Program-made: the position numbers and the translations under genes | Notes under the pieces: model-generated | Databases searched by the model: none | Told to the model about the DNA's origin: nothing | Seen by the model: only the letters and a program-made list of their open reading frames with translations | Source of the DNA: an uncultured Christensenella sp. | GTDB lineage: Bacteria; Bacillota; Clostridia; Christensenellales; CAG-917 | NCBI GenBank assembly: GCA_910578325.1 | Contig: CAJTQT010000001.1 | Location: 4,527-68,526, forward strand | Reading direction: 5' to 3' | DNA length: 64,000 bases | Shown: piece after piece, positions 1,393-54,808 of the stretch | Layout of the letters: the number at the start of each line of letters is the position of its first letter | Numbering within the stretch: position 1 is the stretch's first letter

Positions 1393-2445
1393 TCAGTTAT
1401 TTTCCCGTTCCTGCGATTTGACTTCTTCCCAAAAGGCGTCGAGTTGTTCAAGCGTATATTCGGACATCTCTTTGCCGCTTTGCAAAACGAGTTTTTCCAC
1501 GCCTTCGAATCTGCGCATAAACTTATCGCTTGCGCCGCGCAACGCCATCTCCGCTTCCACGCCGTACATCCGTACTACGTTCATCGCCGCAAAAAGCAAG
1601 TCCCCTGCCTCTTCCGTTCTGTGCGCGTCGTCCGCTTCTGCGAGTTCGGAAATCTCCTCTTTCAGTTTTTCAATCGCGCCGATAGGATTGTCCCAGTCAA
1701 AGCCCGCCTTCTTTGCGAGTTTCTGCACTTTTTCTGCATACAGCAACGACGGCAAGTTCTTCGGGACTCTGCTCATCGCGTCGGAAGTGGACTTATACTT
1801 TTTCTCTTTCTTCTTAGCCTCGTTCCAGAACACAAGCGCTTCGTCAGCGTTGCCCGCATGGTTCTTACCGAAGATATGCGTATGGCGGTCTATGAGTTTA
1901 CGGCAAAGTTCCGTCAACATATCGTAATATCCGAACTCGCCGTCCTCCTGCGCTATCTCGGTGTGGAACACCGCCTGCATAAGAACGTCGCCGCACTCCT
2001 CTCTCATCATATCGGCGTCGTTACAGTCAATACCTTCGACGAGTTCATACGCCTCTTCGATGAGATTAATTCTGATACTGCTGTGCGTCTGAGCCTTATC
2101 CCACTCGCATCCGTCGTCTGCGCGCAACCTTTTCATAATCTGAACGAAATCGGAAAAGCCGAACCTCTTGCATTCGGTAACGGCGCAACCGTCAATGATT
2201 ACGGTATCGACCGACATTCCGTCCGAAAGTTGCGAAACGCTTGTTTCCACGTCGTTGCCGTCGCATTCGCAGACAATGCTCACGTCGCCGTAACAATCCA
2301 GAAGTTTGTCACGCAAAGCGGCGATTTCGCCATCGGAAACGTTGTCGATAACAAGCGGAATGCGCTTATCGAAAAAAATCGCCGACAAAAAATCCGCGAT
2401 TATGTAACGCTGATAAGAACCTTTTAAAACCTGATCAAGTTTCAT
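1393..2445 (-). CDS. mazG: MazG-family nucleoside triphosphate pyrophosphohydrolase (YabN-like, reduced N-terminal domain)
   Basis: Two MazG repeats are present (EEAYELVEGI..ECGDVLMQ and EEISELAEA..EAGDLLFAAMN). The position downstream of spoVT and yabM matches Bacillus yabN. Confidence 0.85.
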   Translation of the reverse strand: MKLDQVLKGSYQRYIIADFLSAIFFDKRIPLVIDNVSDGEIAALRDKLLDCYGDVSIVCECDGNDVETSVSQLSDGMSVDTVIIDGCAVTECKRFGFSDFVQIMKRLRADDGCEWDKAQTHSSIRINLIEEAYELVEGIDCNDADMMREECGDVLMQAVFHTEIAQEDGEFGYYDMLTELCRKLIDRHTHIFGKNHAGNADEALVFWNEAKKKEKKYKSTSDAMSRVPKNLPSLLYAEKVQKLAKKAGFDWDNPIGAIEKLKEEISELAEADDAHRTEEAGDLLFAAMNVVRMYGVEAEMALRGASDKFMRRFEGVEKLVLQSGKEMSEYTLEQLDAFWEEVKSQERENN

Positions 2446-4042
2446 CGCTGTACTCCCAAAATCTGACTATTCTGTGCAGAGTGCGGAAAAATCTGCGCAT
2501 AGGCAAATACTCGATTTCGTCTCTGCCGACGATTCCGAAGAGGAAAGTCAGCCAAAGATAAACCGCCGAGCAGACCGCCGCGCCCACTATCGTCGCGACC
2601 AGATTGCTTCTGATAAGACTGCTTACGCCCAACCCTGCCAAAGCCATTATAACACCGCCGAGCAGATTTAGACCAATATTTTTTTCAAGATGCAGACCGC
2701 ATATTTTCAGATACGCGATATTTACTCCCGCAAGCGCAACCGCCGCCATAGCCAGCGAAGCAAGCGCGCCCCCTGCTATACCTATATACCGTACAAGCAC
2801 AACGCTTAGGATAATTTTTACCGTAATCGCACAAACAAGACTTAAAACTGCGAATTTGGTTCTATCAAGTGCCTGTAATAGCGAAACATATATCTGCATT
2901 GCGGAAAGCATAACTACGTTTGCCGCCACAATCCGCAACAGTTGAACTGCAAGATCGAGTTGCGCCGGCGTTAACGCGGGATATATAACCGGCAGAAGTC
3001 TGGGCGCAAAAACCATAAAATAGAAGGCGCAAGGAACGCCGATAAGGTATGCAAGTTTTATCGACAGCCTACTTTTGAGCATTACGCCGCCTATATCTCT
3101 CTGCACTCTCGACACCGAGACCGAGGGGACTATTACGACCGCCAGCGACATTATAATTACGATCGGCATATTTATAAGCGAATTGACAGGTCCCGAAAGC
3201 AGCCCGTATTGAGCGGTAGCGATTTCCTGCGCGACTCCTGAATCTTTGAGTACGTTTACAAGTATAATACTGTCAAAGAAATTTGAAAGCGGCATCAGCA
3301 CCGCGACAATCGCAATAGGGAACGCCACTTTAAACATCGTCCGCGCGTCGTTCCTGCTGACTTTGAGTTTTTCCCCTTTAAGTTTGCGTCCGCGCACGAA
3401 ATACGTTATAACGAGATACGCAAGCGCAAACGCCTCCGACGCCGCAATTCCCAAAAGCGCGCCGTTGACCGCCGCCGTAACTCCCTTAGGCATCAACGCG
3501 ACGGAAAGTCCTATTCCGACCGCCAGTTTGACAACTTGCTCGATAATGTTGGATACAGCCGTCGGGAGCATATACATCTCACCCTGAAACCAACCTCTGA
3601 ATCCCGCTATAAGACTGACAAGTATAATTGTCGGCGCGATTATCATAAAACCCGTACGCGTATCGGAGTTCCCCTGCCACTGCGCAAGTTTACCTGCAAG
3701 CGTAAATGTGAGAATTGCCAGTATCGCCCCGAGCGCGGTCAGCACGAGAATGGCGGATACAAGATATTTCTTCGTAGGCGCTCCCTCCGCCCGCTTCTCC
3801 GCCACCATACGCGAAAGCGCGGTGGGAATACCCGCCGTCGAGAGCACCATAAACAAAGCGAATACGGGAAAGACCAACTGGTACATTCCCATTCCCTGTG
3901 CGCCGAGAATATTCGTAAGCGGAACTCTGTAAAGCGCGCCGAGCATCTTTGCGACTATGCTGCCTATCGCCAGCACCGCCGCGCCCGAAAGCATAAAGCC
4001 TTTATTACGCTTTACCGCGTCTTTGGTCTTCTCTTTCGGCAT
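2435..4042 (-). CDS. MOP-superfamily polysaccharide/lipid-II flippase-like membrane protein (YabM/SpoVB/MurJ type)
   Basis: 535-aa polytopic membrane ORF with a MurJ/SpoVB-like N-terminus (GAAVLAIGSIVAKMLGALYRVPLTNILGAQGMGMYQ). It overlaps the mazG start by 11 nt and sits in spoVT-yabM-yabN synteny. Confidence 0.85.
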   Translation of the reverse strand: MPKEKTKDAVKRNKGFMLSGAAVLAIGSIVAKMLGALYRVPLTNILGAQGMGMYQLVFPVFALFMVLSTAGIPTALSRMVAEKRAEGAPTKKYLVSAILVLTALGAILAILTFTLAGKLAQWQGNSDTRTGFMIIAPTIILVSLIAGFRGWFQGEMYMLPTAVSNIIEQVVKLAVGIGLSVALMPKGVTAAVNGALLGIAASEAFALAYLVITYFVRGRKLKGEKLKVSRNDARTMFKVAFPIAIVAVLMPLSNFFDSIILVNVLKDSGVAQEIATAQYGLLSGPVNSLINMPIVIIMSLAVVIVPSVSVSRVQRDIGGVMLKSRLSIKLAYLIGVPCAFYFMVFAPRLLPVIYPALTPAQLDLAVQLLRIVAANVVMLSAMQIYVSLLQALDRTKFAVLSLVCAITVKIILSVVLVRYIGIAGGALASLAMAAVALAGVNIAYLKICGLHLEKNIGLNLLGGVIMALAGLGVSSLIRSNLVATIVGAAVCSAVYLWLTFLFGIVGRDEIEYLPMRRFFRTLHRIVRFWEYSDET

Positions 4043-4043
4043 A

Positions 4044-4592
4044 TCAGATAAGCGCGGACGTTATGAGTTCCACACAGAAATGAAGATACGAACGGTCGAT
4101 TTCCGACGCCTTCGATTCCGACAGCAAAAGTGCCGCACCCATCAAATCGCCGCCGACTATCACGGGCTCCATCACACAGTTTTCAAATAAAGGCTCTCGA
4201 TCGGCAAACATATTTTTTACGTTGTTTTTTTGCAACTCTTCCGCGCGTCTTTCGCGCACTGCGGAAGCAAAGTCTTCGCTGAGTTTAGCCGACTGATAGT
4301 GCTTCTTATCTTTACCCTCCGAAACGGTAACCGCGGACGTATCCACAAACAAAACGGTGGATTCGGTCGCCTTTGCAAGCAATTTCGCCGTGGATTTGAT
4401 TATCGGCATAACGCTTTCGAAACTGCTGTACTTGCGCAGCGTAAGAGCGTCGCCGCTTGACAGTATTTCCATTTCGTCACCCTCTTTGAGGTGCATAGTG
4501 CGGCGCATCTCTTTGGGAATAACGATACGTCCCAACTCGTCTATTCTTCTGACTATTCCCGCCGCTGTCATTGTTGATGATAATGTAGACAT
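4044..4592 (-). CDS. spoVT: Stage V sporulation protein T (AbrB-family regulator)
   Basis: GIVRRIDELGRIVIPKEMRRTMHLKEGDEMEI is the AbrB/SpoVT swapped-hairpin DNA-binding domain, followed by a GAF-like C-terminal domain. I chose the ATG at 4592 (MSTLSS) because GGAGG lies 5 nt upstream. The track ORF extends to 4643. Confidence 0.85.
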   Translation of the reverse strand: MSTLSSTMTAAGIVRRIDELGRIVIPKEMRRTMHLKEGDEMEILSSGDALTLRKYSSFESVMPIIKSTAKLLAKATESTVLFVDTSAVTVSEGKDKKHYQSAKLSEDFASAVRERRAEELQKNNVKNMFADREPLFENCVMEPVIVGGDLMGAALLLSESKASEIDRSYLHFCVELITSALI

Positions 4593-4703
4593 AATTTCCT
4601 CCGATTTGAAATTAGTATTTTTCAATCGCCGAGGAATATTCAACTCTTATAAACTTTATAAATCTCTATGCCGACACACCGCGGTTTTGACAAATCTTTA
4701 CCA

Positions 4704-4732: not shown

Positions 4733-4811
4733 TATTATAGATATTTATACTCATATATTAAGTTAATACTAATGCATATCTAATACGGGTGGAAAATTCA
4801 AGGAGAAAAAT

Positions 4812-6848
4812 ATGAAAAAGAAATCGGTTTTCATAATATCGGCGTTAATGCTAATTGTCGCGTGCATATTCGTTTTAGTTGCCTGCGACAATAACAACGA
4901 AAACAACGGCGGCAATAATAACACACCGTCTGCCGAATGGGGCGAAGTTTATACTGTGGACGCCGCATACGCCCGCGCCGCAGATTTGGGATATGCAGGC
5001 TCGCTTGAAGAATTCATCGCGCTTATAAGCGGTAAAGACGGCATTGACGGAACTAACGGAAAGGACGGTAAAGACGGTATAAACGGGACCGACGGAAAGG
5101 ACGGCATAAACGGAACAAACGGCAAAGACGGAGTGGACGGAATTAACGGAATCAATGGAAAGGACGGCATCGACGGTAAAGACGGAGTCGGCATTGTAGA
5201 CATAGAACTAACTTCATCGGGAAATTTGATAATTCGTCTATCCAACAATGAAAGCATCGACCTCGGAACAGTGTTCAAGTGCGAGCATTCCTATTCCGAC
5301 TGGCAAACCGTGCTCGAACCTACCTGCACCGCTGTCGGATACGATGTCCGCACCTGCACGAAATGCGACAGCAAGGATTATAAATTTTATGAACAACTGG
5401 GGCACGAATGGGACGACGCCTCAATCGCAATAGAACCCAACTGCTTTAATCGCGGTCTGAAGATATACGGATGTTTGGTATGCGACGCAACAAGAAGCGA
5501 AATTTTGGAAAAGCGGCATAACTATGTCGACGGCGTCTGCACCGTCTGCGAAACTCTCGAACCGACTGAAGATTTGCTGGACTTCACTCCTATTGAAGTT
5601 GGATATAGCGTCCGCATAAACCTCATCGAGCAACAATCGGCAAAAAACATTGTAATTCCCGACACATACAACGGATTACCCGTTACTCAAATTGAAATAA
5701 ACGGATTTCGCAATTGTACCGAACTTGAAAGCATATATATTCCTAACAGCATTACGTCTATTATGAACGACGCATTTGCTAATTGCTCAAAACTGAAGAA
5801 TATACATATTCCCGAAAGCGTTACGTATATAAATAAATCCGCATTCATAAGAATTCCTTTGGAAAATATAACGATAGATAAAAGAAACTCCGTTTATCAC
5901 AGTGCGGGAAACTGTATTATTGAGACCGAAAGTAAGACTCTGTTGACAGGTTGCCAAAACAGCGTCATACCCAGTGACGGTAGCGTTGTAAAAATCGGAA
6001 GTTACGCATTTTACCACTCTGCACTGACAAGTATCATCATCCCGGAAAGCATTGTTGAGATAGAAGACTATGCTTTTGGGCAGTGCATTGACTTGAAAGT
6101 GGTCTACAATTTTTCTGACCTGGATATTGTCAAGGGTTCTGCTAACCACGGTTTTGTGGCATATTATGCGGAAGATGTTTACACCGCTCTTGATAATGAC
6201 ACTAAGTATGATTCGATTATGTTCACGTTGACTAATGATTTAACCGGCTATGAAGTGCATGCAAGAAACAAATCAATCACGAGCGCGGAAATACCTGAGA
6301 CATACAAGGGCTTGCCGGTAAAAGAAATCGGCGACAGCGCATTTACTAATTGTACGGAACTCGAAAGCATACAAATTGCCGACAGCATTACACGCATAGG
6401 CAACAATGCATTTGCGAGATGCACAAAACTGAAAAGCCTGAATATTCCTAAAAGCGTAACGAATATCGGACGCAATATATTAACGCTTTCGGGAGTAGAA
6501 AATATAACCGTTGAAGAAGGGAACCCCGTTTTCCACAGCGACGGGAACTGTATTATAGAAACGGAAAGCAAAACATTGATTGTCGGCATAAATAACAGCA
6601 TTATCCCCCGAGACGGAAGTGTTAAAATAATCGGGGAATATGCGTTTCTCCTGTGCGAAGAGTTGACTCAAATCGTAATACCCGAGTGCATTGTCGAAAT
6701 CAAAGAAAGAGCGTTTATGAACTGCACCGCTCTAAAAACGGTTTATAATCTTTCTGCCTTAGATATTACAGTCGGCTCGTCTAAACACGGTAATATAGGA
6801 TCTTATGCCGAGAATATCTATACAACTCTTGAAGAAAACGTATTGTAA
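4812..6848 (+). CDS. Surface lipoprotein with collagen-like GXY repeats, a Cys-motif region and two BspA-type leucine-rich-repeat modules
   Basis: AAGGAG RBS. Signal peptide with lipobox LVAC (Cys25). 18 GXY triplets. CxxxGxxxxxCxxC..LGHEW motifs. Two paralogous LRR blocks (NCTELESIYIPNSITSI.. and NCTELESIQIADSITRI..). Confidence 0.8.
   Translation: MKKKSVFIISALMLIVACIFVLVACDNNNENNGGNNNTPSAEWGEVYTVDAAYARAADLGYAGSLEEFIALISGKDGIDGTNGKDGKDGINGTDGKDGINGTNGKDGVDGINGINGKDGIDGKDGVGIVDIELTSSGNLIIRLSNNESIDLGTVFKCEHSYSDWQTVLEPTCTAVGYDVRTCTKCDSKDYKFYEQLGHEWDDASIAIEPNCFNRGLKIYGCLVCDATRSEILEKRHNYVDGVCTVCETLEPTEDLLDFTPIEVGYSVRINLIEQQSAKNIVIPDTYNGLPVTQIEINGFRNCTELESIYIPNSITSIMNDAFANCSKLKNIHIPESVTYINKSAFIRIPLENITIDKRNSVYHSAGNCIIETESKTLLTGCQNSVIPSDGSVVKIGSYAFYHSALTSIIIPESIVEIEDYAFGQCIDLKVVYNFSDLDIVKGSANHGFVAYYAEDVYTALDNDTKYDSIMFTLTNDLTGYEVHARNKSITSAEIPETYKGLPVKEIGDSAFTNCTELESIQIADSITRIGNNAFARCTKLKSLNIPKSVTNIGRNILTLSGVENITVEEGNPVFHSDGNCIIETESKTLIVGINNSIIPRDGSVKIIGEYAFLLCEELTQIVIPECIVEIKERAFMNCTALKTVYNLSALDITVGSSKHGNIGSYAENIYTTLEENVL
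5031..5192 (+). repeat. Collagen-like triplet repeat (18 x Gly-X-Y) inside the lipoprotein gene
   Basis: aa 74-127 read GKD GID GTN GKD GKD GIN GTD GKD GIN GTN GKD GVD GIN GIN GKD GID GKD GVG. Confidence 0.85.
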
Positions 6849-35413: not shown

Positions 35414-36184
35414 TCATTTGTTCGCGTCGTATATAAATCTCAGTCCTTTGAGCGCGAGCGCCCTGTCCACGACGTCGAACAATTTAGGCTCCGTCGCCGC
35501 GACAATTTCGCTCAGTCCGCCAGTGGCAATCACTTTCGCGCCGCTCATACGCGGCAGTTGTTTATACTTTTCCACCATATATTTTACGAGTCCGCTATAA
35601 CCGAATATGATCCCGCTCTGCATACATGCCCGCGTATTCGTTCCGACAACGTCCTCCGGCGGAGTAAGTTCGATACGCGGAAGTTTTGCCGTCGAAGTTA
35701 CAAGCGATTCGGTTGCAGTCATAATGCCGGGTGCAATCGCGCCGCCTATAAATTCGCCGTTTCCCGTAACCAGATTGAACGTAGTTGCCGAGCCGAAATC
35801 TATCTCTATGACAGGGCCTCCGTAAAAGTGATACGCGGCGGCCGCGCCGACGATTCTGTCCGCCCCGAGTTCGGAAGGATGATCGTATCCGAGCGTGATG
35901 CCCGTGTTGAGCGTATGCGTCACGCAGAGCGGTTTTCTGCCTATGTAATACTGGCACATATGCTCTATTGTATAGTTGAGCGCAGGCGCAACAGACGACA
36001 GCACCGCGTCGGTTATATCCTCGAACTTCGCGCCTCTCTGTTTGAGCAAATCGTAGAGAACCATTCCGTATTCGTCGGCAGTACGGTACGCTTTTGTAGA
36101 CATACGCCAGGACGCGACGACCTTATCATTGTCAAACACGCCGATTTTCACGTTTGTATTTCCGATATCCATAGCAAGCAACAT
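35414..36184 (-). CDS. coaX: Type III pantothenate kinase
   Basis: MLLAMDIGNTNVKIGVF, DFGSATTF and ATGGLS motifs are present. I chose the ATG at 36184 behind AGGAGA. The track ORF extends to 36211. Confidence 0.85.
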   Translation of the reverse strand: MLLAMDIGNTNVKIGVFDNDKVVASWRMSTKAYRTADEYGMVLYDLLKQRGAKFEDITDAVLSSVAPALNYTIEHMCQYYIGRKPLCVTHTLNTGITLGYDHPSELGADRIVGAAAAYHFYGGPVIEIDFGSATTFNLVTGNGEFIGGAIAPGIMTATESLVTSTAKLPRIELTPPEDVVGTNTRACMQSGIIFGYSGLVKYMVEKYKQLPRMSGAKVIATGGLSEIVAATEPKLFDVVDRALALKGLRFIYDANK

Positions 36185-36274
36185 AAGTTTCTCCTGCGCG
36201 CGTAGGCGCATATTATACAGATAAAATTAGTATATCAAAAATATTCTCTTTTATCAAGCGCGTATTTGACTGAA

Positions 36275-36739
36275 TCAGTTGTTCATCGCAATGCTCATAA
36301 TGCATAAAAAACAGTATACGTAAAACAAAAACGCCGGCAGGAATTCTACGGCAATTTTGACGTCTTTGAGCAGAAACCGCACAAAAAGCGTGTACGCCAT
36401 TGCCAGCGACAGCGTGATAAACACAAGCCCCGCGATTATGTTTTTAAAGTAGAAGAAACTCATTACGAACATCACGCTGCAAAAGCCCAGTATCGCAAAA
36501 AATATCATCGACGGAAATATGTGTTTAAACTCCACGAGTCTGCTTATTGCCAGAATAGATGAAAGATAACTCGCCGCTACGAATACGGTAAACCAGCCGC
36601 CGCTCACTAAAAATATCGGTTTGTTGAGTTCGACGTACCACTTTAAGTCGAGTTTGAAGAAATAGGAACACAGTCCCGCAACTATCAAAGTGCAGAACAA
36701 AGCCGCCACTATTCCCAACATACGTTTCAAGTACTCCAC
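36275..36739 (-). CDS. tspO: TspO/MBR-like five-TM membrane protein
   Basis: 154 aa with 5 hydrophobic helices. The WYVELNKP motif is in the position of the TspO WYxxLxKP block. The remainder is divergent. Confidence 0.5.
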   Translation of the reverse strand: MEYLKRMLGIVAALFCTLIVAGLCSYFFKLDLKWYVELNKPIFLVSGGWFTVFVAASYLSSILAISRLVEFKHIFPSMIFFAILGFCSVMFVMSFFYFKNIIAGLVFITLSLAMAYTLFVRFLLKDVKIAVEFLPAFLFYVYCFLCIMSIAMNN

Positions 36740-36844
36740 GCAATAATATATTGAAGATTATTATTTTCAATGCTTAGGAACACATTTTTTTAAATAAGCG
36801 TAAGGTAATGTAGGAGAAATCCAAAAAACTCGGAGGTACATACT

Positions 36845-37054
36845 ATGAACTTTTTTGCAAACGGTGGCTCAAACGGTTGTGGTTGTGGTTGCAATTGCTG
36901 CGACCTGATTCTTCTTATGCTCATACTCAACAGTTGCGGATGCGGCTGCGGATGCGGCAACACGGGATGCGGCGGCTGCACCAACAGTTGCGACCTCGTA
37001 TGGCTTATCCTCATTCTGTCCTGCGTATGCGGCAATAACTGCTGCTGCAAGTAA
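36845..37054 (+). CDS. Cys/Gly-rich hydrophobic mini-protein (69 aa, 17 Cys, two-fold internal repeat)
   Basis: GGAGG RBS 8 nt before the ATG. Sequence is MNFFANGGSNGCGCGCNCCDLILLMLILNSCGCGCGCGNTGCGGCTNSCDLVWLILILSCVCGNNCCCK. A strong hairpin follows directly after the stop. The antisense ORFs are nonsense. Confidence 0.6.
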   Translation: MNFFANGGSNGCGCGCNCCDLILLMLILNSCGCGCGCGNTGCGGCTNSCDLVWLILILSCVCGNNCCCK

Positions 37055-37178
37055 GGAATCCTTACACCCGCAAAATAGTTTTGCGGGCCCTTGCGGAACG
37101 CAGTACACCCCGACGGACGGGAGTGTAAACAAGAATGAAGTGCGTATGTTCGCCCTGCCGCGAACACGCGAGGGACGG

Positions 37179-37204
37179 AAAGCGGGAAGCGATTCCCGCT
37201 TTTC
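37179..37204 (+). terminator. Rho-independent terminator ending the Cys-rich gene transcript
   Basis: GAAAGCGGGAA-GCGA-TTCCCGCTTTTC, about 125 nt after the stop codon. Confidence 0.6.
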
Positions 37205-37273
37205 GCTTCGTCGCGCTACATTATATGCACTGAAAACCCGAAATGATATTCGCCGCATAATAATGCGAAGTAT

Positions 37274-37302
37274 TTGACTTTATAAGAGTTTTTATTTATT
37301 AT
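37274..37302 (+). promoter_or_regulatory. Candidate sigma-A promoter for glyQS
   Basis: TTGACT (37274-37279), a 17-nt spacer, then TATTAT (37297-37302). Confidence 0.5.
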
Positions 37303-37431
37303 CATAATTACAATAAGGTACGCATTCCGGCGTGCCGACATCGTCGCATTGAAACGGTTAGCGTCAAATAATTGCTATAAGGTAAATACAAGACGCGTCC
37401 GATTCAAACGCGCGAAGTGTGGAGGTATAAT

Positions 37432-38817
37432 ATGGCACAACTTACAATGGAAAAGATTGTCGCGCTTGCAAAAAACCGCGGCTTTGTCTATCCCGGCAGC
37501 GAAATTTACGGCGGACTGTCCAACTCGTGGGATTTCGGTCCTCTCGGCGTCGCGCTCAAAAACAACATCAAACAAGCCTGGTGGAAAAAATTCGTCGTCG
37601 AAAATCCTCACACAGTGGGTATCGACAGCGCGATTCTTATGAATCCGACTACCTGGCAGGCTTCCGGACATATCGGAGGATTCTCCGACCCGCTTATGGA
37701 CTGCAAAAGTTGTAAATCCCGTCACCGCGCAGACAACCTCATCGAAGACTATATGGCAAAGCACGGCATCGAGGGCAACATCGCAGGCTGGACCAACGAA
37801 CAAATGGAACAGTACATCGCAGAAAATAAAATTCCCTGCCCCGTATGCGGCAACAGCGATTTTACCGGCGTAAGAAAATTCAACCTTATGTTCAAGACCT
37901 TTATCGGCGTAACGGAGGACAGCACTTCAACCGTATATCTCCGTCCCGAAACCGCGCAGGGCATTTTCGTGAACTTCAAAAACGTTCAGCGCACTACGCG
38001 CAAAAAGATACCTTTCGGAATAGGTCAGATAGGAAAGAGTTTCCGCAACGAAATCACGCCCGGGAACTTCATCTTCCGTATAAGAGAATTCGAACAAATG
38101 GAAATGGAATTCTTCTGCAAACCCGACACCGATCTCGAATGGTTTGCATACTGGAAAAACTTCTGCCATCAGTGGTTGCTCGGTCTGGGTATGCGCGAAG
38201 AGAATCTCCGTCTGCGCGATCACGACGCGGAGGAACTCTGCTTCTATTCAAAAGCAACAACCGACTTCGAATATAAATTCCCCTTCGGATGGGGCGAACT
38301 GTGGGGCGTTGCCGACCGTACCGATTACGACCTTAATCAGCATATCAAGACGAGCGGCAAAGATTTGAGTTATGTAGACCCTGTCACAAACGAAAAATAC
38401 GTACCCTACGTTGTCGAGCCGTCGCTCGGCGCGGACCGTGCGTTCCTCGCGTTCCTCTGCGACGCATACGACGAAGAACAGGTCGGCGAAAACGATACGC
38501 GAGTCGTGCTTCACTTCCACCCCGCGCTCGCACCCGTCAAAGTTGCAGTACTTCCGCTTCAAAAGCAACTCAATGAAAAAGCGGAATCTCTGTACGTCGA
38601 ACTCTCCAAACACTTTGCCTGCGATTTCGACACGTCCGCGTCAATCGGCAAACGTTATCGCAGACAGGACGAGATAGGAACTCCGTACTGCGTAACGGTT
38701 GACTTCGAATCCCTCGAAGACGAGTGTGTAACCGTGCGCGAGCGCGACACGATGGCGCAAGTCCGCCTGCCTATCGAAGATTTGGTGAAATACTTCGAAG
38801 ACAAAATGGAATATTGA
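37432..38817 (+). CDS. glyQS: Glycine--tRNA ligase (single-chain alpha2 GlyQS type)
   Basis: [34 protein letters not shown], class II motifs ([11 protein letters not shown]) and an anticodon-binding C-terminus are present. I chose the ATG at 37432 behind GGAGG. The track starts at a GTG at 37417. Confidence 0.9.
38787..38817 (+). repeat. Direct repeat copy 1 (last 10 codons of glyQS, including the stop codon)
   Basis: GAAATACTTCGAAGACAAAATGGAATATTGA recurs at 40774-40804 with 30/31 identity. Confidence 0.85.
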
Positions 38818-38834
38818 ATACAAATTTGATTTAT

Positions 38835-38866
38835 AAAAGAAGCGCGCATTTTTGCGTGCTTCTTTT
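38835..38866 (+). terminator. Rho-independent terminator after glyQS
   Basis: AAAAGAAGCGCGCA-TTTT-TGCGTGCTTCTTTT. Confidence 0.75.
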
Positions 38867-38883
38867 ATAAATCAACAAAATTC

Positions 38884-39096
38884 TTAATTTAAAGTTATAC
38901 TTATTTTTGTATCAGGCTCATCAACCATATTCGAAATAATCAATTTATCCGAAATATCCCCCTTTTCAATATTTAATTGAATTACCTCAAGAACATAATG
39001 CTTTAAATCCATTAAATCATTTAAATACATTTTTTTTCTTAGTTTATCACTGTTCGTCTTATGAACCTTTTCAAAATTTTTTAAAACCTGCTTCAT
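38884..39096 (-). CDS. Hypothetical 70-aa protein (island gene)
   Basis: AT-rich ORF with a GAAGG RBS 6 nt upstream. Sequence begins MKQVLKNFEKVHKTNSDKLRKKMYLNDLMDLKHY. I recognise no family. Confidence 0.45.
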   Translation of the reverse strand: MKQVLKNFEKVHKTNSDKLRKKMYLNDLMDLKHYVLEVIQLNIEKGDISDKLIISNMVDEPDTKISITLN

Positions 39097-39128
39097 ATTA
39101 ACCTTCTTTTTATAAATTTTACATTAAA

Positions 39129-39272
39129 TCAATTTAAGTACTCTATTTCAATTGTTGCCTTAGAATTATCAGATAAAAAAATCAATATCTTGTTATTGTC
39201 ATAAATTATCTCATTTGAAACTTCTAGATTCATACCTGCTCTAATTAACTCCAAAATCAAAGGTATTCCCAT
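39129..39272 (-). CDS. Hypothetical 47-aa protein (island gene, below ORF-track cutoff)
   Basis: Hand translation gives MGIPLILELIRAGMNLEVSNEIIYDNNKILIFLSDNSKATIEIEYLN*. GAGGAGG lies 9 nt upstream. It sits 32 nt upstream of the 70-aa ORF on the same strand. Confidence 0.35.
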   Translation of the reverse strand: MGIPLILELIRAGMNLEVSNEIIYDNNKILIFLSDNSKATIEIEYLN

Positions 39273-39403
39273 AATGCATCACCTCCTCTATTGCTTATTC
39301 GTTCGAATTATATTGCATAGGCTCATTTTAACATCTCCTAAGACTGACACAAAGCATTTTTACTCATACTTTGCAATAAAATTTTAGCAGAAGGTGGCTT
39401 ATT

Positions 39404-39862
39404 ATGTCGAAACTTGTCTATAGGCTTAAAACACTTTTTGATAGTTATGATTTATCAACCGTAACTGGACAACAAGCGTTAGAAATCAGCAAAACACAAT
39501 TAGGTAGATACTTATCGGGATTTTATGTGCCGTCATTAAAAAACGCAATAAAGATTTGTGATTACTTTGACTGTTCACTGGATTACCTACTTGGTATAGA
39601 CGAAGAAAAAAATCGATTCGGAAATTTTGAAGAACCTAATTTTGAGATTTTTTCAAAAAGATTCCTACAAATTCTCAGCGAGCACAATTTAAGCATATAT
39701 CAGGTTGCGAAGAAATTAGAAATCAATAGAAACAATTGGACTTATTGGAATAAGAAAAAAACTTTACCGACTTTGGAAACAATTTATAAGTTGGCTAAAG
39801 AGTTCGAAGTATCTGCCGAATTCCTAATCGGTCGGACAAAAATTAAAAAAGGATCACTATGA
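39404..39862 (+). CDS. Dual-HTH XRE-family regulator, paralog 1
   Basis: Two Cro/C1-type HTH modules are present (..ISKTQLGRYLSG..AIKICDYFDCSLDYLLG and ..IYQVAKKLEINRNNWTYW..LAKEFEVSAEFLIGR). AAGGTGG RBS. Confidence 0.8.
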   Translation: MSKLVYRLKTLFDSYDLSTVTGQQALEISKTQLGRYLSGFYVPSLKNAIKICDYFDCSLDYLLGIDEEKNRFGNFEEPNFEIFSKRFLQILSEHNLSIYQVAKKLEINRNNWTYWNKKKTLPTLETIYKLAKEFEVSAEFLIGRTKIKKGSL

Positions 39863-40293
39863 ATTTCAATCTAAGATTAAAAGAACTTCTTGACGAACAA
39901 GAGATTTCTGCAAGAAAACTGTGCGAACAAATAGGTATCGACCATACGTCGATATATATGTATTTACAAGGCGGTTATCCAAATTTAGAAAACGCAGTTA
40001 AAATTGCGAACTATTTCGACTGTACGCTAAATTTCTTGTTCTGTATTGATGAACTTCCTAATCAATATAAGTTTTTCTATGAATATAATGCAGGCTTATT
40101 TTTCAAAAGATACACGGATTTATTACGACTAAACAAAATCTCTCATTACAAGGTCGGTAAGGAACTGAAATTAGGGAATTCTACATTTAAAAAATGGCAA
40201 AGTGGCTGCATCCCTAAAATCGAAACGCTGACAAAACTATCAAAATATTTTGGCTACTCTATTGATTACCTCGTTGGTCGTAGCGATACGTAA
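39859..40293 (+). CDS. Dual-HTH XRE-family regulator, paralog 2
   Basis: Same two-module layout as paralog 1 (..ARKLCEQIGIDHTSIYMYL..IANYFDCTLNFLF and ..HYKVGKELKLGNSTFKKW..LSKYFGYSIDYLVGRSD). ATGA start/stop overlap with paralog 1. Confidence 0.8.
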   Translation: MNFNLRLKELLDEQEISARKLCEQIGIDHTSIYMYLQGGYPNLENAVKIANYFDCTLNFLFCIDELPNQYKFFYEYNAGLFFKRYTDLLRLNKISHYKVGKELKLGNSTFKKWQSGCIPKIETLTKLSKYFGYSIDYLVGRSDT

Positions 40294-40305
40294 AGGATAA
40301 AACAT

Positions 40306-40749
40306 ATGACCGAATTTACAAGAATTTTAAAAGAATTATTAGATGAACAAAACACTACAATTCGTTCTTTAAGTCCGCAAATTGGTATTCCCTACCAGGA
40401 ACTGTACACATACGTTAATGATGATTATTTTCCGTCAATATATAACGCCGAAAAACTTGCGAACTATTTCGACTGTTCGTTTGATTATCTCTTCGGTCTT
40501 TCAGATACTTTTAAAACATCCGAATTTAAAGAAGTCGACATTTCTAAATTTTATCCGAGGTACTTAGAATTATTACAAGAAAACAAAATTAGCCACCACC
40601 ATTTATACAAAACATTAGGGTTGAGCAAATCAGGTCTGAGTAAATGGAGAAACGGTTCTGTTCCAAAGATTGAAAGCCTGTTAAAAATCGCCAAATTTTT
40701 TGGCACTCACATAGATTATTTAGTAGGACGTAGCGACATAAGGTATTAG
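40306..40749 (+). CDS. Dual-HTH XRE-family regulator, paralog 3
   Basis: Same layout (..LANYFDCSFDYLFG and ..IAKFFGTHIDYLVGRSD). AAGGA RBS. Lies 12 nt after paralog 2. Confidence 0.8.
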   Translation: MTEFTRILKELLDEQNTTIRSLSPQIGIPYQELYTYVNDDYFPSIYNAEKLANYFDCSFDYLFGLSDTFKTSEFKEVDISKFYPRYLELLQENKISHHHLYKTLGLSKSGLSKWRNGSVPKIESLLKIAKFFGTHIDYLVGRSDIRY

Positions 40750-40773
40750 CAAATCAAAACCCACAGTATCGGA

Positions 40774-40804
40774 GAAATACTTCGAAGACAAAATGAAATA
40801 TTGA
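40774..40804 (+). repeat. Direct repeat copy 2 (relic glyQS 3' end)
   Basis: GAAATACTTCGAAGACAAAATGAAATATTGA differs from copy 1 by one substitution. In the glyQS frame it would read KYFEDKMKY*. Confidence 0.85.
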
Positions 40805-41593: not shown

Positions 41594-42967
41594 TCAGTCA
41601 TTCTGATTTTCAAGCGCTTCGTCGACTTTGAGCATTATTGCGCACTCGATGCGCTTTTTAAAGAGGTCGCAACCGTAAGCATAAACGCCGTTGACGCTTC
41701 CCGTCGCATTGTACGCGTTCGCCGCGCATCCTCCCGAACAATAGAGTCTCGCCCAGCAGTCGGCGCATTCCGTGCGAGAATATGCGTTGCATCTTTTAAA
41801 CTCGTCCCTGATATCCGTGCGGATTACGCCCTGCCAGATATCGCCCATAAGATAGTCTTTGTTCCCTACAAACTGGTGGCAGGGATACAACTCGCCCGTC
41901 GGTGTGACGGCAAGATATTCCGTGCCGCTCCCGCAACCCGATATCCTCTTATATATGCACGGTCCGCCGTCGAGGTCGAGCATATAGTGATAAAACGTAA
42001 ACGGCTTTCCTTCTTTGCGCCTTTTTATCATCATCTCTGCGAGTTTGCCGTACTCGGCGCAAACAATCAACTTGTCCTCTTCGGTCAAAGCGTACTTATC
42101 TGTCGGCGGAGATACAACAGGCTCCATACTCAGTTCGTCGAATCCGAGGTCGAGCATCGTCTGTATGTCCTTCGTGAAATCGGGATTGAAATGCGTAAAC
42201 GTGCCGCGCATATAATAACTCTTATCGCCGCGGGCTTTTACGAACTTCTGAAATTTCGGGACTATTACGTCGAAACTGCCCACGCCTCCCGCCGTTTTGC
42301 GGAAGCGGTCGTTCACCTCTTTTCTGCCGTCGAGACTGAGCACGACGTTGTCCATTTCTCTGTTGGCAAATTCGATAACCTCGTCATCAAGAAGCATACC
42401 GTTGGTCGTAAGCGTAAAGCGGAAATTCTTGCCGTGTTCCTTTTCGACCGAACGCGCGTAAGCGACAAGTTTTTTTACTACGTCGAAGTTCATAAGCGGT
42501 TCGCCGCCGAAAAAATCCACTTCGAGATTGCGACGCGTTCCGCTGTTTTCTATGAGGAAATCAAGGGCGCGTTTGCCCACTTCAAACGTCATAAGCGCGC
42601 GTTCGCCGTGGTATTTCCCCTGAGCCGCAAAACAATACTCGCAATCGAGATTGCACGTATGCGCAACGTGCAGACACATCGCCTTTACAACCGTTTCGCG
42701 CTTTGCAAGCGCGTCTGCGTTGGGGCGGAATTCATCGCAAGAGAATAAAACTCCCTGCGCTTTCAATGCGTCGACATCATCGAGACAAGCCTTTACTTCT
42801 TCCTCGCTTATCCCGTGTCGTATTGAAACCTGCCCAATGAGTTCTTCCCGCGGAGTGCTTTCGTATAAATTGATAATATCAAACGCAACGTCATCCACGC
42901 AATGCACGCTTCCGCTCGCTACGTCGAGCACGATATTATATCCGTTTTGTCTGAACGAATGTATCAT
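41594..42967 (-). CDS. Radical SAM/SPASM thioether cross-link-forming SCIFF peptide maturase
   Basis: CNLDCEYC radical-SAM cluster motif, a Cys-rich SPASM C-terminus (CADCWARLYCSGGCAANA), and a location immediately downstream of a SCIFF precursor. Confidence 0.9.
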   Translation of the reverse strand: MIHSFRQNGYNIVLDVASGSVHCVDDVAFDIINLYESTPREELIGQVSIRHGISEEEVKACLDDVDALKAQGVLFSCDEFRPNADALAKRETVVKAMCLHVAHTCNLDCEYCFAAQGKYHGERALMTFEVGKRALDFLIENSGTRRNLEVDFFGGEPLMNFDVVKKLVAYARSVEKEHGKNFRFTLTTNGMLLDDEVIEFANREMDNVVLSLDGRKEVNDRFRKTAGGVGSFDVIVPKFQKFVKARGDKSYYMRGTFTHFNPDFTKDIQTMLDLGFDELSMEPVVSPPTDKYALTEEDKLIVCAEYGKLAEMMIKRRKEGKPFTFYHYMLDLDGGPCIYKRISGCGSGTEYLAVTPTGELYPCHQFVGNKDYLMGDIWQGVIRTDIRDEFKRCNAYSRTECADCWARLYCSGGCAANAYNATGSVNGVYAYGCDLFKKRIECAIMLKVDEALENQND

Positions 42968-43056: not shown

Positions 43057-43203
43057 TTATTTGCCCGCTTTCTCGCACTTCTGATTTGCTACTCCGCAGG
43101 ATGTTTTGCACGCGGACTGGCAGGAAGTTTGGCATTCGCCGCAACCGCCGTTCTTTTTGCTATCGCTGAGATTGCGGGTTTTCAAAGTGACAATTCTTTT
43201 CAT
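43057..43203 (-). CDS. SCIFF (six-cysteines-in-forty-five) ranthipeptide precursor, 48 aa
   Basis: Hand translation gives MKRIVTLKTRNLSDSKKNGGCGECQTSCQSACKTSCGVANQKCEKAGK*. The GGCGECQTSCQSACKTSC core is the SCIFF hallmark. AAGGAG RBS. It is below the ORF-track size cutoff. Confidence 0.9.
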   Translation of the reverse strand: MKRIVTLKTRNLSDSKKNGGCGECQTSCQSACKTSCGVANQKCEKAGK

Positions 43204-52352: not shown

Positions 52353-52574
52353 ATGGAATACGGTTTGAAAACTACGGTCGGCAAAAATCTCAAAGAAAGC
52401 CGCACCGCCGCAGGGTACACTCAGGCGCAGGTTGCAAAACTAATGAATATGACGCAACAGCAATACAGTCGGTTTGAAAACGGCATATTCGAACTCAACT
52501 ATGACCAACTCGTATATCTTTGCACGCTTTTCGACGTTTCAAGCGATTTTTTATTAGGTCTTTCGCTGTTTTAA
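52353..52574 (+). CDS. Small XRE-family HTH transcriptional regulator (73 aa)
   Basis: GKNLKESRTAAGYTQAQVAKLMNMTQQQYSRFENG is a canonical Cro/C1 HTH. No SD is visible. TACAAT ends 6 nt before the ATG, so a leaderless transcript is possible. Confidence 0.75.
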   Translation: MEYGLKTTVGKNLKESRTAAGYTQAQVAKLMNMTQQQYSRFENGIFELNYDQLVYLCTLFDVSSDFLLGLSLF

Positions 52575-53483
52575 ACTTTTGGCAAAAAATGATTTTTTTG
52601 TTTTCGCGTTTTCAACCGCCTCTTTTTGCAATCTGTTTTTTTGCGTCTTCGCAGGCTTTCCTTTTCCGCTCAAAGCAGATTCGAGCGTATTAGATAGCCT
52701 GTTTTTCAGCGCAAGAGCCTTTAAATCCGCTTCTGAAAGCACCGCGACGGGTTCGCCTTGCGGACCTATGATTTCAAACGTCGTTTCACAAGTCGACGCG
52801 ACGTGATGATACAGCCTTATAATCGGAGCGTCCTGCGAAATTCTCACCGTCTTACGCTCTACCCCCAGCATATAATTCTTGCTCGCACTGTCCAGAATGC
52901 TGATATACATCTCCTCTTTTGTTCCGAACGCCGAACCGTAAAACAGAAATACCGCTATTATTCCGAAAGTAAAATTGAGTCCGAAAAAGAAGGAACCTAT
53001 AAAAAGCCCTAAAAATATCACGCTGCAAACTATCCCCGCAATTTGCAAGCCTTTTATCGCTTTGAGTTTGTTTTTGCAAAGTCCGAGAACTATGCGCGAG
53101 CCGTCCAAAGGATATATCGGAAGCAGATTGAAAATGCCCAGAGAAAGATTTGCGTAAAAGAAAATCTCCGTATACGAATATACCGAGGGGAACAGCCACC
53201 ATACGCCCAGCGTGATAAGCGAGAGCACAAGATTGCAAACAGGACCTGCAAGCCCCACAAGTACAGAGGACGGACGGTCGAAATTCTCTTCCGTACTCAT
53301 CATTGCGCCGAACGGAAGGAGCACCATTTTCTTTACGGTAAACCCTCGCAGCCGCGCCATAGCCGCGTGCGCGAGTTCGTGAAGAATAAGCGCGATAAAC
53401 GTCAGCACAAACGCCTGCGCCCGCCCGAGCGCGACAAGCGCGAGAGCGAGCACGAAAAACAGCGGATGCACTTTTATCTGCAT
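52554..53483 (-). CDS. spoIVFB: M50 site-2 metalloprotease, SpoIVFB-like
   Basis: HELAHA zinc motif in a TM helix, the NLLPIYPLDG motif, and a C-terminal CBS-like domain are present. The position after the min genes matches Bacillus. Confidence 0.8.
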   Translation of the reverse strand: MQIKVHPLFFVLALALVALGRAQAFVLTFIALILHELAHAAMARLRGFTVKKMVLLPFGAMMSTEENFDRPSSVLVGLAGPVCNLVLSLITLGVWWLFPSVYSYTEIFFYANLSLGIFNLLPIYPLDGSRIVLGLCKNKLKAIKGLQIAGIVCSVIFLGLFIGSFFFGLNFTFGIIAVFLFYGSAFGTKEEMYISILDSASKNYMLGVERKTVRISQDAPIIRLYHHVASTCETTFEIIGPQGEPVAVLSEADLKALALKNRLSNTLESALSGKGKPAKTQKNRLQKEAVENAKTKKSFFAKSLKQRKT

Positions 53484-53496
53484 AGCGAAACTCTTA

Positions 53497-53733
53497 TCAG
53501 ATATTAGTCAGGAAATTCGCAACCGATTTGATTGCGTCCACAGCCGCGGACGCCTTAAAGATGTTCGCAAACAAAAATCCCAAAGATACGAATACGCCGA
53601 GCACGACAGGAACTATCGCGACATCGAGAAAGTCGATAGAATGTTTGCGGCGGCGTTTTTCCGTCACTCTGTTTTCTACAAATTCGTTTGTCGAAATTTC
53701 TACGTCAAGTTTTTTATTCTCGTCAAATTCCAT
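53497..53733 (-). CDS. Small bitopic membrane protein (78 aa), unknown function
   Basis: GAGGTG RBS and one TM helix (VAIVPVVLGVFVSLGFLFANIF). It occupies the slot upstream of spoIVFB. Confidence 0.5.
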   Translation of the reverse strand: MEFDENKKLDVEISTNEFVENRVTEKRRRKHSIDFLDVAIVPVVLGVFVSLGFLFANIFKASAAVDAIKSVANFLTNI

Positions 53734-53794
53734 ATTGTCACCTCGGCAATATCCTATTCTTTGAGAATCCGTTTTATACCTGACTTTGCAAAAA

Positions 53795-54046
53795 TCAGTA
53801 CCTTTTTATATCGAACGTCGTTTCAAACTGTTTTATTCGCGTTGCCGAAGCGGAAACGGTTATTCTGTACTCGCCGCTATCCATAAGAACTATGTCTATT
53901 TCCGCCGCGTCCGTCAAATCGAAATAATCGTTTAAAATACGGTTTAAGTCACCCGTCAGCGCGGTGGAAAACCCTTCTTTTACTCCCACCTTGTCGTGAA
54001 TGAGCATATCCCGCATACGTTTTGCAATCTCTCTGTCCCTTTTCAT
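53795..54046 (-). CDS. minE: Cell division topological specificity factor MinE
   Basis: 83 aa directly after minD. IAKRMRDMLIHDK matches the MinE AKERLxxxLxHDR block. Confidence 0.7.
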   Translation of the reverse strand: MKRDREIAKRMRDMLIHDKVGVKEGFSTALTGDLNRILNDYFDLTDAAEIDIVLMDSGEYRITVSASATRIKQFETTFDIKRY

Positions 54047-54058
54047 AATACCTCTCTA

Positions 54059-54808
54059 TTACCTTCTGCGGAACAAACGGTGTCTGTACTTTACGTCAAC
54101 GAAATTCTTTGTCGAATTCGCTACGTTTTCGGCAAGCGCGTCGTACGCCCTGTCGGACACCGAAGACTGCGGCATAGTTCCGAGTTGCTGATAAAGAGTT
54201 ATCATATCGTCTTCGGGAATTACGCCCACCGGCGGCGTATGGAGAAGGGAACCTATTTCAGCCGCGCCGATCATCTCTCCTCTCGAAACCATATCGGGAC
54301 GAACCCTGTTTACCACTATGGAAATATCGGAAAGTCTGTATCCTGCAAGCAGACTTATCACCTTGTCCGCGTCCCTGATTGCCGAAGCGGACGGCGTTGT
54401 AACTACAATAGCCTCGTCCGCAGCCGAAACAGCGCGGTGAAAACCGTGTTCAATTCCGGCGGGACAGTCTATAATGACAAAATCGAATTCGGAAAATCCG
54501 TCCACTATGCCTCTAAACGCCTGAGCGGTCAGCAATGTACTGTCCTTTGACGACGGGAGTATGCGCATAGGGCTCAGCGTATCCGCCACCAACGCCTGAA
54601 ACGCGCGGCATTTACCTGCAAGCACATCGCTCATATCGTAAACGACGCGGCGTTCTATTGCGGTCACGACGTCGAGATTGTTTAATCCCACGTCTCCGTC
54701 GACGAGCACTACTCTGTATCCGTTCAGCGCGAGTTTGCGCCCGAGCGCGGCGGTTACGGTCGTTTTGCCAACGCCGCCCTTTCCGGAAGTTATAACTATT
54801 CTTCTCAT
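54059..54808 (-). CDS. minD: Septum site-determining ATPase MinD
   Basis: Deviant Walker A SGKGGVGKTT and a ParA/MinD fold. The C-terminal amphipathic tail is basic. Confidence 0.9.
   Translation of the reverse strand: MRRIVITSGKGGVGKTTVTAALGRKLALNGYRVVLVDGDVGLNNLDVVTAIERRVVYDMSDVLAGKCRAFQALVADTLSPMRILPSSKDSTLLTAQAFRGIVDGFSEFDFVIIDCPAGIEHGFHRAVSAADEAIVVTTPSASAIRDADKVISLLAGYRLSDISIVVNRVRPDMVSRGEMIGAAEIGSLLHTPPVGVIPEDDMITLYQQLGTMPQSSVSDRAYDALAENVANSTKNFVDVKYRHRLFRRR

Follow-up and report, generated by a model that had tools for sequence, protein, structure and literature searches.

The window, a 64,000-nt stretch of genomic DNA, carries at positions 36845–37054 of the forward strand a coding sequence for a 69-residue peptide rich in Cys, Gly and Asn. 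The translation agrees exactly with the first-pass annotation, which had described a 69-aa ORF with 17 cysteines and a two-fold repeat at this position. Cysteine accounts for 25% of the residues (17 of 69), next to 13 Gly, 9 Asn and 13 Leu/Ile, while D20, D50 and K69 are the only charged residues and the GRAVY value is 0.89. Arg is absent and the single Lys is C-terminal, so standard tryptic proteomics would miss the peptide. Twin hydrophobic units form the core of the sequence. The first, C19-D-LILLMLIL-NS-C31 (36899–36937, forward strand), contains C19, D20, L24, L27, L28 and N29 as invariant or near-invariant positions. The second, C49-D-LVWLILIL-S-C60-V-C62 (36989–37030, forward strand), shows the strongest conservation in the protein, and within it S48-C-D-x-V-W-L-I-L-I-L-S-C60 is invariant among the six nearest sequences. 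Two hexanucleotide arrays on the forward strand, both in frame, encode the Cys-Gly runs: GGTTGT repeated 2.8 times (36875–36891) specifies one such run, which changes in length by two-codon steps among relatives, and TGCGGA/TGCGGC repeated four times (36935–36958) specifies the CGCGCGCG linker.

An AF2 model built on a 19-sequence alignment places helices over the two units, at residues 18–30 and 48–63, with low confidence; its pLDDT of 47 is too low to support a fold search. Neither a signal peptide nor a lipobox was found in the peptide sequence. The maximum KD hydropathy in a 19-residue window is 1.76, a marginal value just over the usual transmembrane threshold, and the aliphatic cores extend for 8–9 residues, or 13–16 as predicted helices. 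A classical helical integral membrane protein would be expected to have hydrophobic stretches of about 18 residues or more, flanked by basic residues; none was found, the C-terminal Lys being the only basic residue. Judged by these measures, the aliphatic cores fall short of classical transmembrane helices in both length and flanking charge. A lipoprotein was rejected for want of a lipobox, a double-glycine leader because the GG is unconserved, and a twin-CX9C motif because the spacing is CX10-11C.

Orthologues were gathered by scanning one genome for each GTDB species (33 loci) and from contigs recovered by exact look-up, giving 34 distinct coding sequences of 59–70 codons. Start, frame and stop are kept in all 34, and the length differences are whole codons in every case. 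Entropy by codon position is 0.59/0.33/1.04, making the third position the most variable, and the median dN/dS is 0.18 over 428 pairs. By these codon-level measures, the ORF at 36845–37054 is a genuine gene under purifying selection. The first-pass annotation had proposed looking for a conserved frame and Cys framework beside tspO and glyQS in relatives, and both were found there. Among the core orthologues, the hydrophobic units and their bracketing Cys, Asp and Ser residues are invariant or nearly so, the N-terminus is short and conserved, and variation is concentrated in the C-terminal tail and the Cys/Gly linker of 9–27 residues. Conservation is lowest in the Cys-Gly runs, which differ in both length and cysteine count. 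A search of 5.8 billion protein clusters returned homologues of 58–67 aa that share the N-terminus, both units and a C-terminal CK, and the exact window peptide was not found in a collection of 15 billion predicted proteins. One core-family member from a metagenome assembly (P0028) is frameshifted, which is probably an assembly or sequencing artefact. The opposite-strand ORFs had earlier been dismissed as nonsense, and our comparison agrees: the two frames, of 125 and 129 aa, are low-complexity and run into flanks that are unconserved in relatives. An antisense frame is open in 30 of the 34 orthologues, and no conserved antisense promoter was seen.

A GGAGG Shine-Dalgarno sequence (36832–36836, forward strand) lies 8 nt 5′ of the ATG, the sequence and spacing that had been claimed for it. 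The block from the Shine-Dalgarno to the start codon, GG(A/G)GGTACATA (36832–36844), is invariant in 18 diverse species and so is conserved beyond a spacer's needs. Further upstream is a candidate sigma-K-type promoter (36778–36807, forward strand), comprising a −35 element GAACA (36778–36782), a 15-nt T-rich spacer and a −10 element GCGTAAGGTA (36798–36807). In an upstream alignment of 18 diverse loci the invariant blocks are ACACA, GCGTA.GGT.A.GTA and GG.GGTACATA..ATG, and the pattern [GT][AC]ACA-N15-GCGTA[AT]GGT[AG] occurs 25–41 nt 5′ of the ATG in 38/38 core-family loci. The −35 element varies in 11 of these 38 loci, reading TCACA in eight (L005-7, L015, L018, L024, L028 and L032) and GAACA in L020, L022 and the window. 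At the divergent-branch locus L072 the second block has three other bases at its centre (GCGTAATCTA). Three related upstream regions, L068–L070, fit the motif poorly. The general form of the core block is kmACA-N15-GCGTAnnnT[AG]; variation among core loci is confined to the k, m and nnn positions and thus falls exactly where the mother-cell promoter template is degenerate. The usual written form of the sigma-K consensus is AC-N16/17-CATAnnnTA. The core-family −10 element has CGTA, not CATA, in all species, a single mismatch to the sigma-K architecture. In B. subtilis, the sigma-K logo has a 5-nt −35 element with C as its fourth base (T in sigma-E) and a gap of 15±1, and the 10-nt −10 element is common to sigma-K and sigma-E promoters (PMC517825). 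Set against these features, the candidate promoter of the window peptide looks like the mother-cell sigma-K architecture with one mismatch. A consensus scan found no sigma-70-type promoter for the peptide gene on the forward strand, and a search for further sigma-K-like sites in the 64-kb window and all core loci produced no informative second example.

The divergent neighbour encodes a TspO/MBR-like membrane protein (36275–36739, reverse strand; Pfam PF03073, E 1.2e-4, below the cutoff). Its sigma-70-type promoter, TTGAAA-16-TATTAT, was located by consensus scan at 36743–36770 on the reverse strand, within the 105-nt intergenic region that the two genes share. The conserved blocks AAATATATTT and TTCAATGC are found only at loci with an adjacent tspO and are accounted for by this sigma-70-type site.

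Downstream of the gene, the region 37050–37230 has a minimum free energy of −83.7 kcal/mol (z = −7.1 against shuffles). The downstream hairpins noted in the first-pass annotation are present, although only one of them resembles a terminator. The first, a perfect 9-bp hairpin, CCCGCAAAA-TAG-TTTTGCGGG (37067–37087, forward strand), sits just 3′ of the stop codon and has no U tail. The second, a long G+C-rich hairpin, GAAAGCGGGAA-GCGA-TTCCCGCTTTTC GCTT (37177–37212, forward strand), is followed by a T-rich stretch and is likely the terminator of the peptide gene; it was not flagged by the consensus scan. Relatives carry canonical terminators 10–40 nt 3′ of the stop. Together these hairpins lie in a 360-nt G+C-rich structured spacer between the peptide gene and glyQS (37055–37416), in place of which relatives carry unrelated sequence; the equivalent spacer of locus L001 holds a REP-like hairpin repeated twice. 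An Rfam scan of 35500–38500 gave nothing credible: glyQS is not preceded by a T-box, and the hairpin-rich spacer matched no known RNA.

The peptide gene is monocistronic, and the usual gene order is coaX-tspO<>peptide-glyQS. The tspO-like gene is adjacent and divergent in 34/37 core loci, and the tspO<>peptide pair is intact at L012, L013, L021 and L072 despite inverted flanks in which the glyQS and coaX sides are swapped. At L002–L004 and L066, the peptide gene and its promoter occupy other genomic positions. The pairing with tspO could be a functional link, or the interval may simply be too short a target to be hit often by breakpoints. For the 150-aa neighbour in L002–4 a functional link was discarded, as that neighbour is unrelated to the TspO-like protein. 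Across the wider superfamily described below, the genomic contexts are unrelated housekeeping genes, which implies no enzyme partner. On the other side of glyQS, a low-GC island (38820–40800; 24–34% GC against 47% for the window) extends towards rex and contains three tandem paralogues of about 150 aa (39404–40749, forward strand) with duplicated HTH-like halves, plus small AT-rich ORFs. The gap between glyQS and rex is shorter in close relatives, so the island is probably an acquired insert.

Searches of Pfam, NCBIfam and the PDB with the peptide and its family gave no credible match, and weak hits to TisB_toxin (E 0.29, 2/19 members) and an opsin (E 0.42) were judged to be noise. An exhaustive profile search over 1.8 billion representatives returned 10 matches at E≤1e-3, where composition-bias correction probably hides most relatives. 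A word-indexed search with the profile of a distant branch, whose members begin MSDLAAT, retrieved at least 658 clusters, mostly from Lachnospiraceae, Roseburia, Agathobacter and Blautia MAGs. Many of these proteins bear the NCBI name 'chorion class high-cysteine HCB protein 13', which is borrowed from a silk-moth eggshell protein and uninformative on function. We found no NCBIfam or Pfam model behind this name, and a literature search with the motif strings and the NCBI name found no bacterial study.

Alignment of the core family (A3) with the MSDLAAT branch (A5) by hhalign gave a probability of 98.1% and an E of 8.4e-14 over 50 columns, a score that biased composition inflates somewhat, and the profile searches of the two groups retrieve each other's members. 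Unit 2 of the window peptide aligns with both units of the MSDLAAT branch. From the profile comparisons, the two groups are homologous. Their common architecture is a Cys/Gly/Asn run and two copies of C-[DSN]-phi8-10-[SN]-C, with no signal peptide and a monocistronic gene. The 'HCB protein 13' branch thus resembles the window family in its two-unit build, monocistronic genes and housekeeping contexts, and has canonical sigma-K-type promoters; it differs in its N-terminus (MSDLAAT...), its length of 72–96 aa and its lack of the C-terminal CK. As far as sequence can place it, the window peptide belongs to a large clostridial superfamily, within a clade found in uncultured 'Christensenella-like' Clostridia of the gut. 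At locus L061 (154–1341), on a metagenome contig with 1.8x coverage, an MSDLAAT peptide and a large membrane protein are joined in one 395-aa ORF, probably through an error of assembly or sequencing.

The promoters of the distant branch bear directly on the sigma-K reading. We collected 20 distinct upstream regions as DNA, and 16 of them contain a canonical AC-N16/17-CATAnnnT[AG] motif at −56 to −66 from the ATG, against 0.27 expected from shuffles and matches in 9/559 (1.6%) control ORF upstream regions. The window-clade promoter has the same layout with CGTA replacing CATA, and the canonical sites of the distant branch make sigma-K the most economical reading of this one-mismatch variant. 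These 16 sites are the strongest evidence that the superfamily may belong to a late mother-cell regulon. The first-pass annotation had suggested a search for sporulation sigma-factor promoter motifs, and the conserved sigma-K-type promoter gives its sporulation analogy real support. The upstream regions of the MSDLAAT branch (L041, L052–L056 and L058–L065) also share a second conserved box, TGTAA(A/T), 3–4 nt after the −10 element and about where transcription would start, and the window clade has TGTAGGAG one base past its −10 element. This box may reflect an initiation-region preference or a regulator site.

The same annotation had likened the peptide to the YjcZ-type sporulation proteins. 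With the sigma-K-type promoter this holds as an analogy of function, but not as family membership, since the HMMs are silent and the architecture differs. Neither PF09680 (YjcZ_2) nor TIGR01732 matched the window peptide, 18 relatives or 8–10 further superfamily members at E≤10, although YjcZ-like positive controls scored 43–54 bits with these models, whose cutoffs are about 21. Membership was rejected on this result and on the presence of two units, not one. Like the Bacillus YjcZ proteins, the window peptide is tiny, nearly uncharged and Gly/Cys-rich, contains very hydrophobic Leu/Ile segments and is encoded by a stand-alone gene. YjcZ has one hydrophobic block of about 17–24 residues (24–26 positions in the models) in a protein of less than about 50 aa, whereas the window family has two Cys-bracketed units of 8–9 residues in 59–70 aa and is clostridial, not bacillary. 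The yjcZ gene of B. subtilis is in the sigma-K regulon (PMC517825), which makes the analogy apt for function. Since membership fails and the likeness is one of kind, the window gene would represent a kind of tiny Cys/Gly-rich hydrophobic late-sporulation protein. Cysteine-rich proteins made late in the mother cell, with proposed disulfide cross-linking in the outer spore layers, include CotY, CotZ and ExsY of Bacillus, CsxA of C. sporogenes, and CdeC and CdeM of C. difficile. Those are folded, lattice-forming proteins of 15–45 kDa, whereas the window peptide is a micro-protein of 7 kDa whose cores are aliphatic, and no similarity to their sequences was detected.

We propose, with a probability of about 0.5, that the window peptide may be made late in the mother cell under sigma-K control and serve as a micro-protein of the spore envelope, YjcZ-like in action and outside the YjcZ family. 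Everything beyond the sigma-K-type promoter, including expression, location and cross-linking, we infer. The gene would be transcribed late in sporulation, in the mother cell, under sigma-K. With no signal peptide, the product would stay in the mother-cell cytoplasm and would be deposited on the forespore, where the two short hydrophobic helices might form a hairpin in the outer forespore membrane or pack into a hydrophobic oligomer. Once the mother cell lyses or conditions become oxidising, the cysteines could form intermolecular disulfides or bind metal. The outcome would be an insoluble, hydrophobic, cross-linked component of the spore envelope, and by such deposition and cross-linking the peptide would act like the tiny YjcZ-type sigma-K proteins of Bacillus.

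An unlikely alternative is that the peptide is an envelope-stress micro-protein, a small membrane-embedded effector of vegetative cells under an ECF sigma factor, with the conserved block read as GTAAC-N17-CGTA. The core block does parse as (G/T)AAC-N17-CGTA followed by a T-run, which resembles the ECF signature AAC...CGT; the KD-19 maximum of 1.76 just passes the transmembrane threshold, and a membrane protein gene (tspO-like) adjoins in 34/37 loci. However, the TCACA loci together with L072 and L073 break the AAC core, whereas kmACA fits every variant. The distant-branch homologues carry CATAnnnTA and no CGT, and the hydrophobic cores span only 8–9 residues, with no basic residues beside them.

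The 25% cysteine content, arranged in C-G-C and C-x-C runs, would also suit a metal- or Fe-S-binding protein, a metallothionein-like store or buffer. We consider this quite improbable, although such a protein could act in sporulation and would then be compatible with the spore-envelope reading. No metallothionein or other Pfam family matched at E≤10, and the Cys framework is not conserved throughout. The Cys-Gly runs that would hold the metal are the part that varies most, in length and cysteine count, while the invariant part is the hydrophobic units, for which a soluble metal binder has no need.

A precursor of a ribosomally synthesised and modified peptide (RiPP) or a membrane-active peptide, whether a bacteriocin, a TOMM-like product or a peptide processed by the radical-SAM SCIFF maturase encoded nearby, is very improbable. 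The peptide is small and Cys/Gly-rich, and a radical-SAM/SPASM SCIFF maturase gene (41594–42967, reverse strand; TIGR03974, 751 bits) lies 4.5 kb downstream. This maturase has its own canonical precursor, a 48-aa peptide with six cysteines encoded at 43057–43203 (reverse strand). Although SCIFF precursors are likewise small and Cys-rich, and their system is in the same window, the window peptide lacks a leader, a linked maturase and a model match, and its Cys spacing differs. Its N-terminus is 8–10 residues with an unconserved GG, which leaves no leader-like region, and no NCBIfam RiPP model matches. The earlier remark that no modifying enzyme is adjacent extends to the other loci, where no RiPP enzyme is consistently linked; near L002–L004, L066 and the Lachnospiraceae-branch loci, modifying enzymes, proteases and transporters are all absent. 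For want of a nearby cyclodehydratase, a precursor of the TOMM or microcin B17 type was rejected. The rex gene lies just downstream of the SCIFF system, and the same order is seen in relatives L008, L010, L020 and L022.

A small hydrophobic peptide resembling type I toxins, or else a spurious ORF arising from a GC-rich hexanucleotide repeat, has in its favour the weak TisB_toxin matches (E 0.29, 2/19 members), the arrays within the ORF and the antisense frame open in 30/34 orthologues, but is scarcely credible given a dN/dS of 0.18, antisense ORFs that reach into non-conserved flanks with no conserved antisense promoter seen, and the conservation across more than 30 species of the promoter and Shine-Dalgarno, of both ends of the frame and of the terminator; the spurious-ORF reading in particular is largely refuted by the codon-level conservation and appears essentially excluded.

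The spore-envelope reading has a bolder extension, which we regard as distinctly doubtful. Here the superfamily would be a widespread, previously unrecognised group of 'spore hydrophobin-like' micro-proteins of anaerobic gut Clostridia, in which contact with oxygen triggers polymerisation of the twin helices through their cysteines. Cysteine stapling would take place only when oxygen is met, after mother-cell lysis or exit from the gut, and the spores of strict anaerobes would gain both an oxygen-triggered hardening and a hydrophobic coat. Such micro-proteins have no internal tryptic sites and would on that account have escaped proteomics.

Many commensal Clostridia of the gut rely on spore formation for their transmission, and beyond C. 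difficile and Bacillus the composition of their spore envelope is almost unknown. The family described here has at least 658 clusters, no curated model, a misleading insect-eggshell name and a sigma-K-type promoter signature. If confirmed, the spore-envelope reading would give the mother-cell programme one more widespread component, small and either structural or protective. For uncultured lineages in which the capacity for sporulation is contested, the gene would also offer a compact promoter and marker of late sporulation.

The window itself contains genes related to sporulation proteins, which count in favour of the spore-envelope reading. A cluster at 1393–4643 (reverse strand) comprises spoVT-like, yabM/spoVB-like flippase and yabN/mazG genes in a Bacillus-like order. 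The SpoVT-like protein is full length and has 2W1T as its best PDB match (E 3e-20); it scores 104 bits with TIGR02851, short of the cutoff, and the SpoVB match likewise falls below the NCBIfam cutoff. A second cluster in Bacillus-like order (52554–54808, reverse strand) encodes MinD, MinE, a 78-aa membrane protein and a SpoIVFB-like M50 protease. In the PDB this protease is best matched by 8VJL (E 5e-21), a structure of SpoIVFB, the enzyme by which pro-sigma-K is activated. Against the spore-envelope reading, most Christensenellales MAGs were predicted to be non-sporulating in a machine-learning study, which gave the same verdict for nearly all Lachnospirales (PMC12536801). Elsewhere in the window, at 4812–6848 (forward strand), lies a gene for a predicted 678-aa lipoprotein with collagen triple-helix repeats and BspA-type leucine-rich repeats, and a sigma-E-like motif match that may be due to chance ends at 4760, 5′ of this gene.
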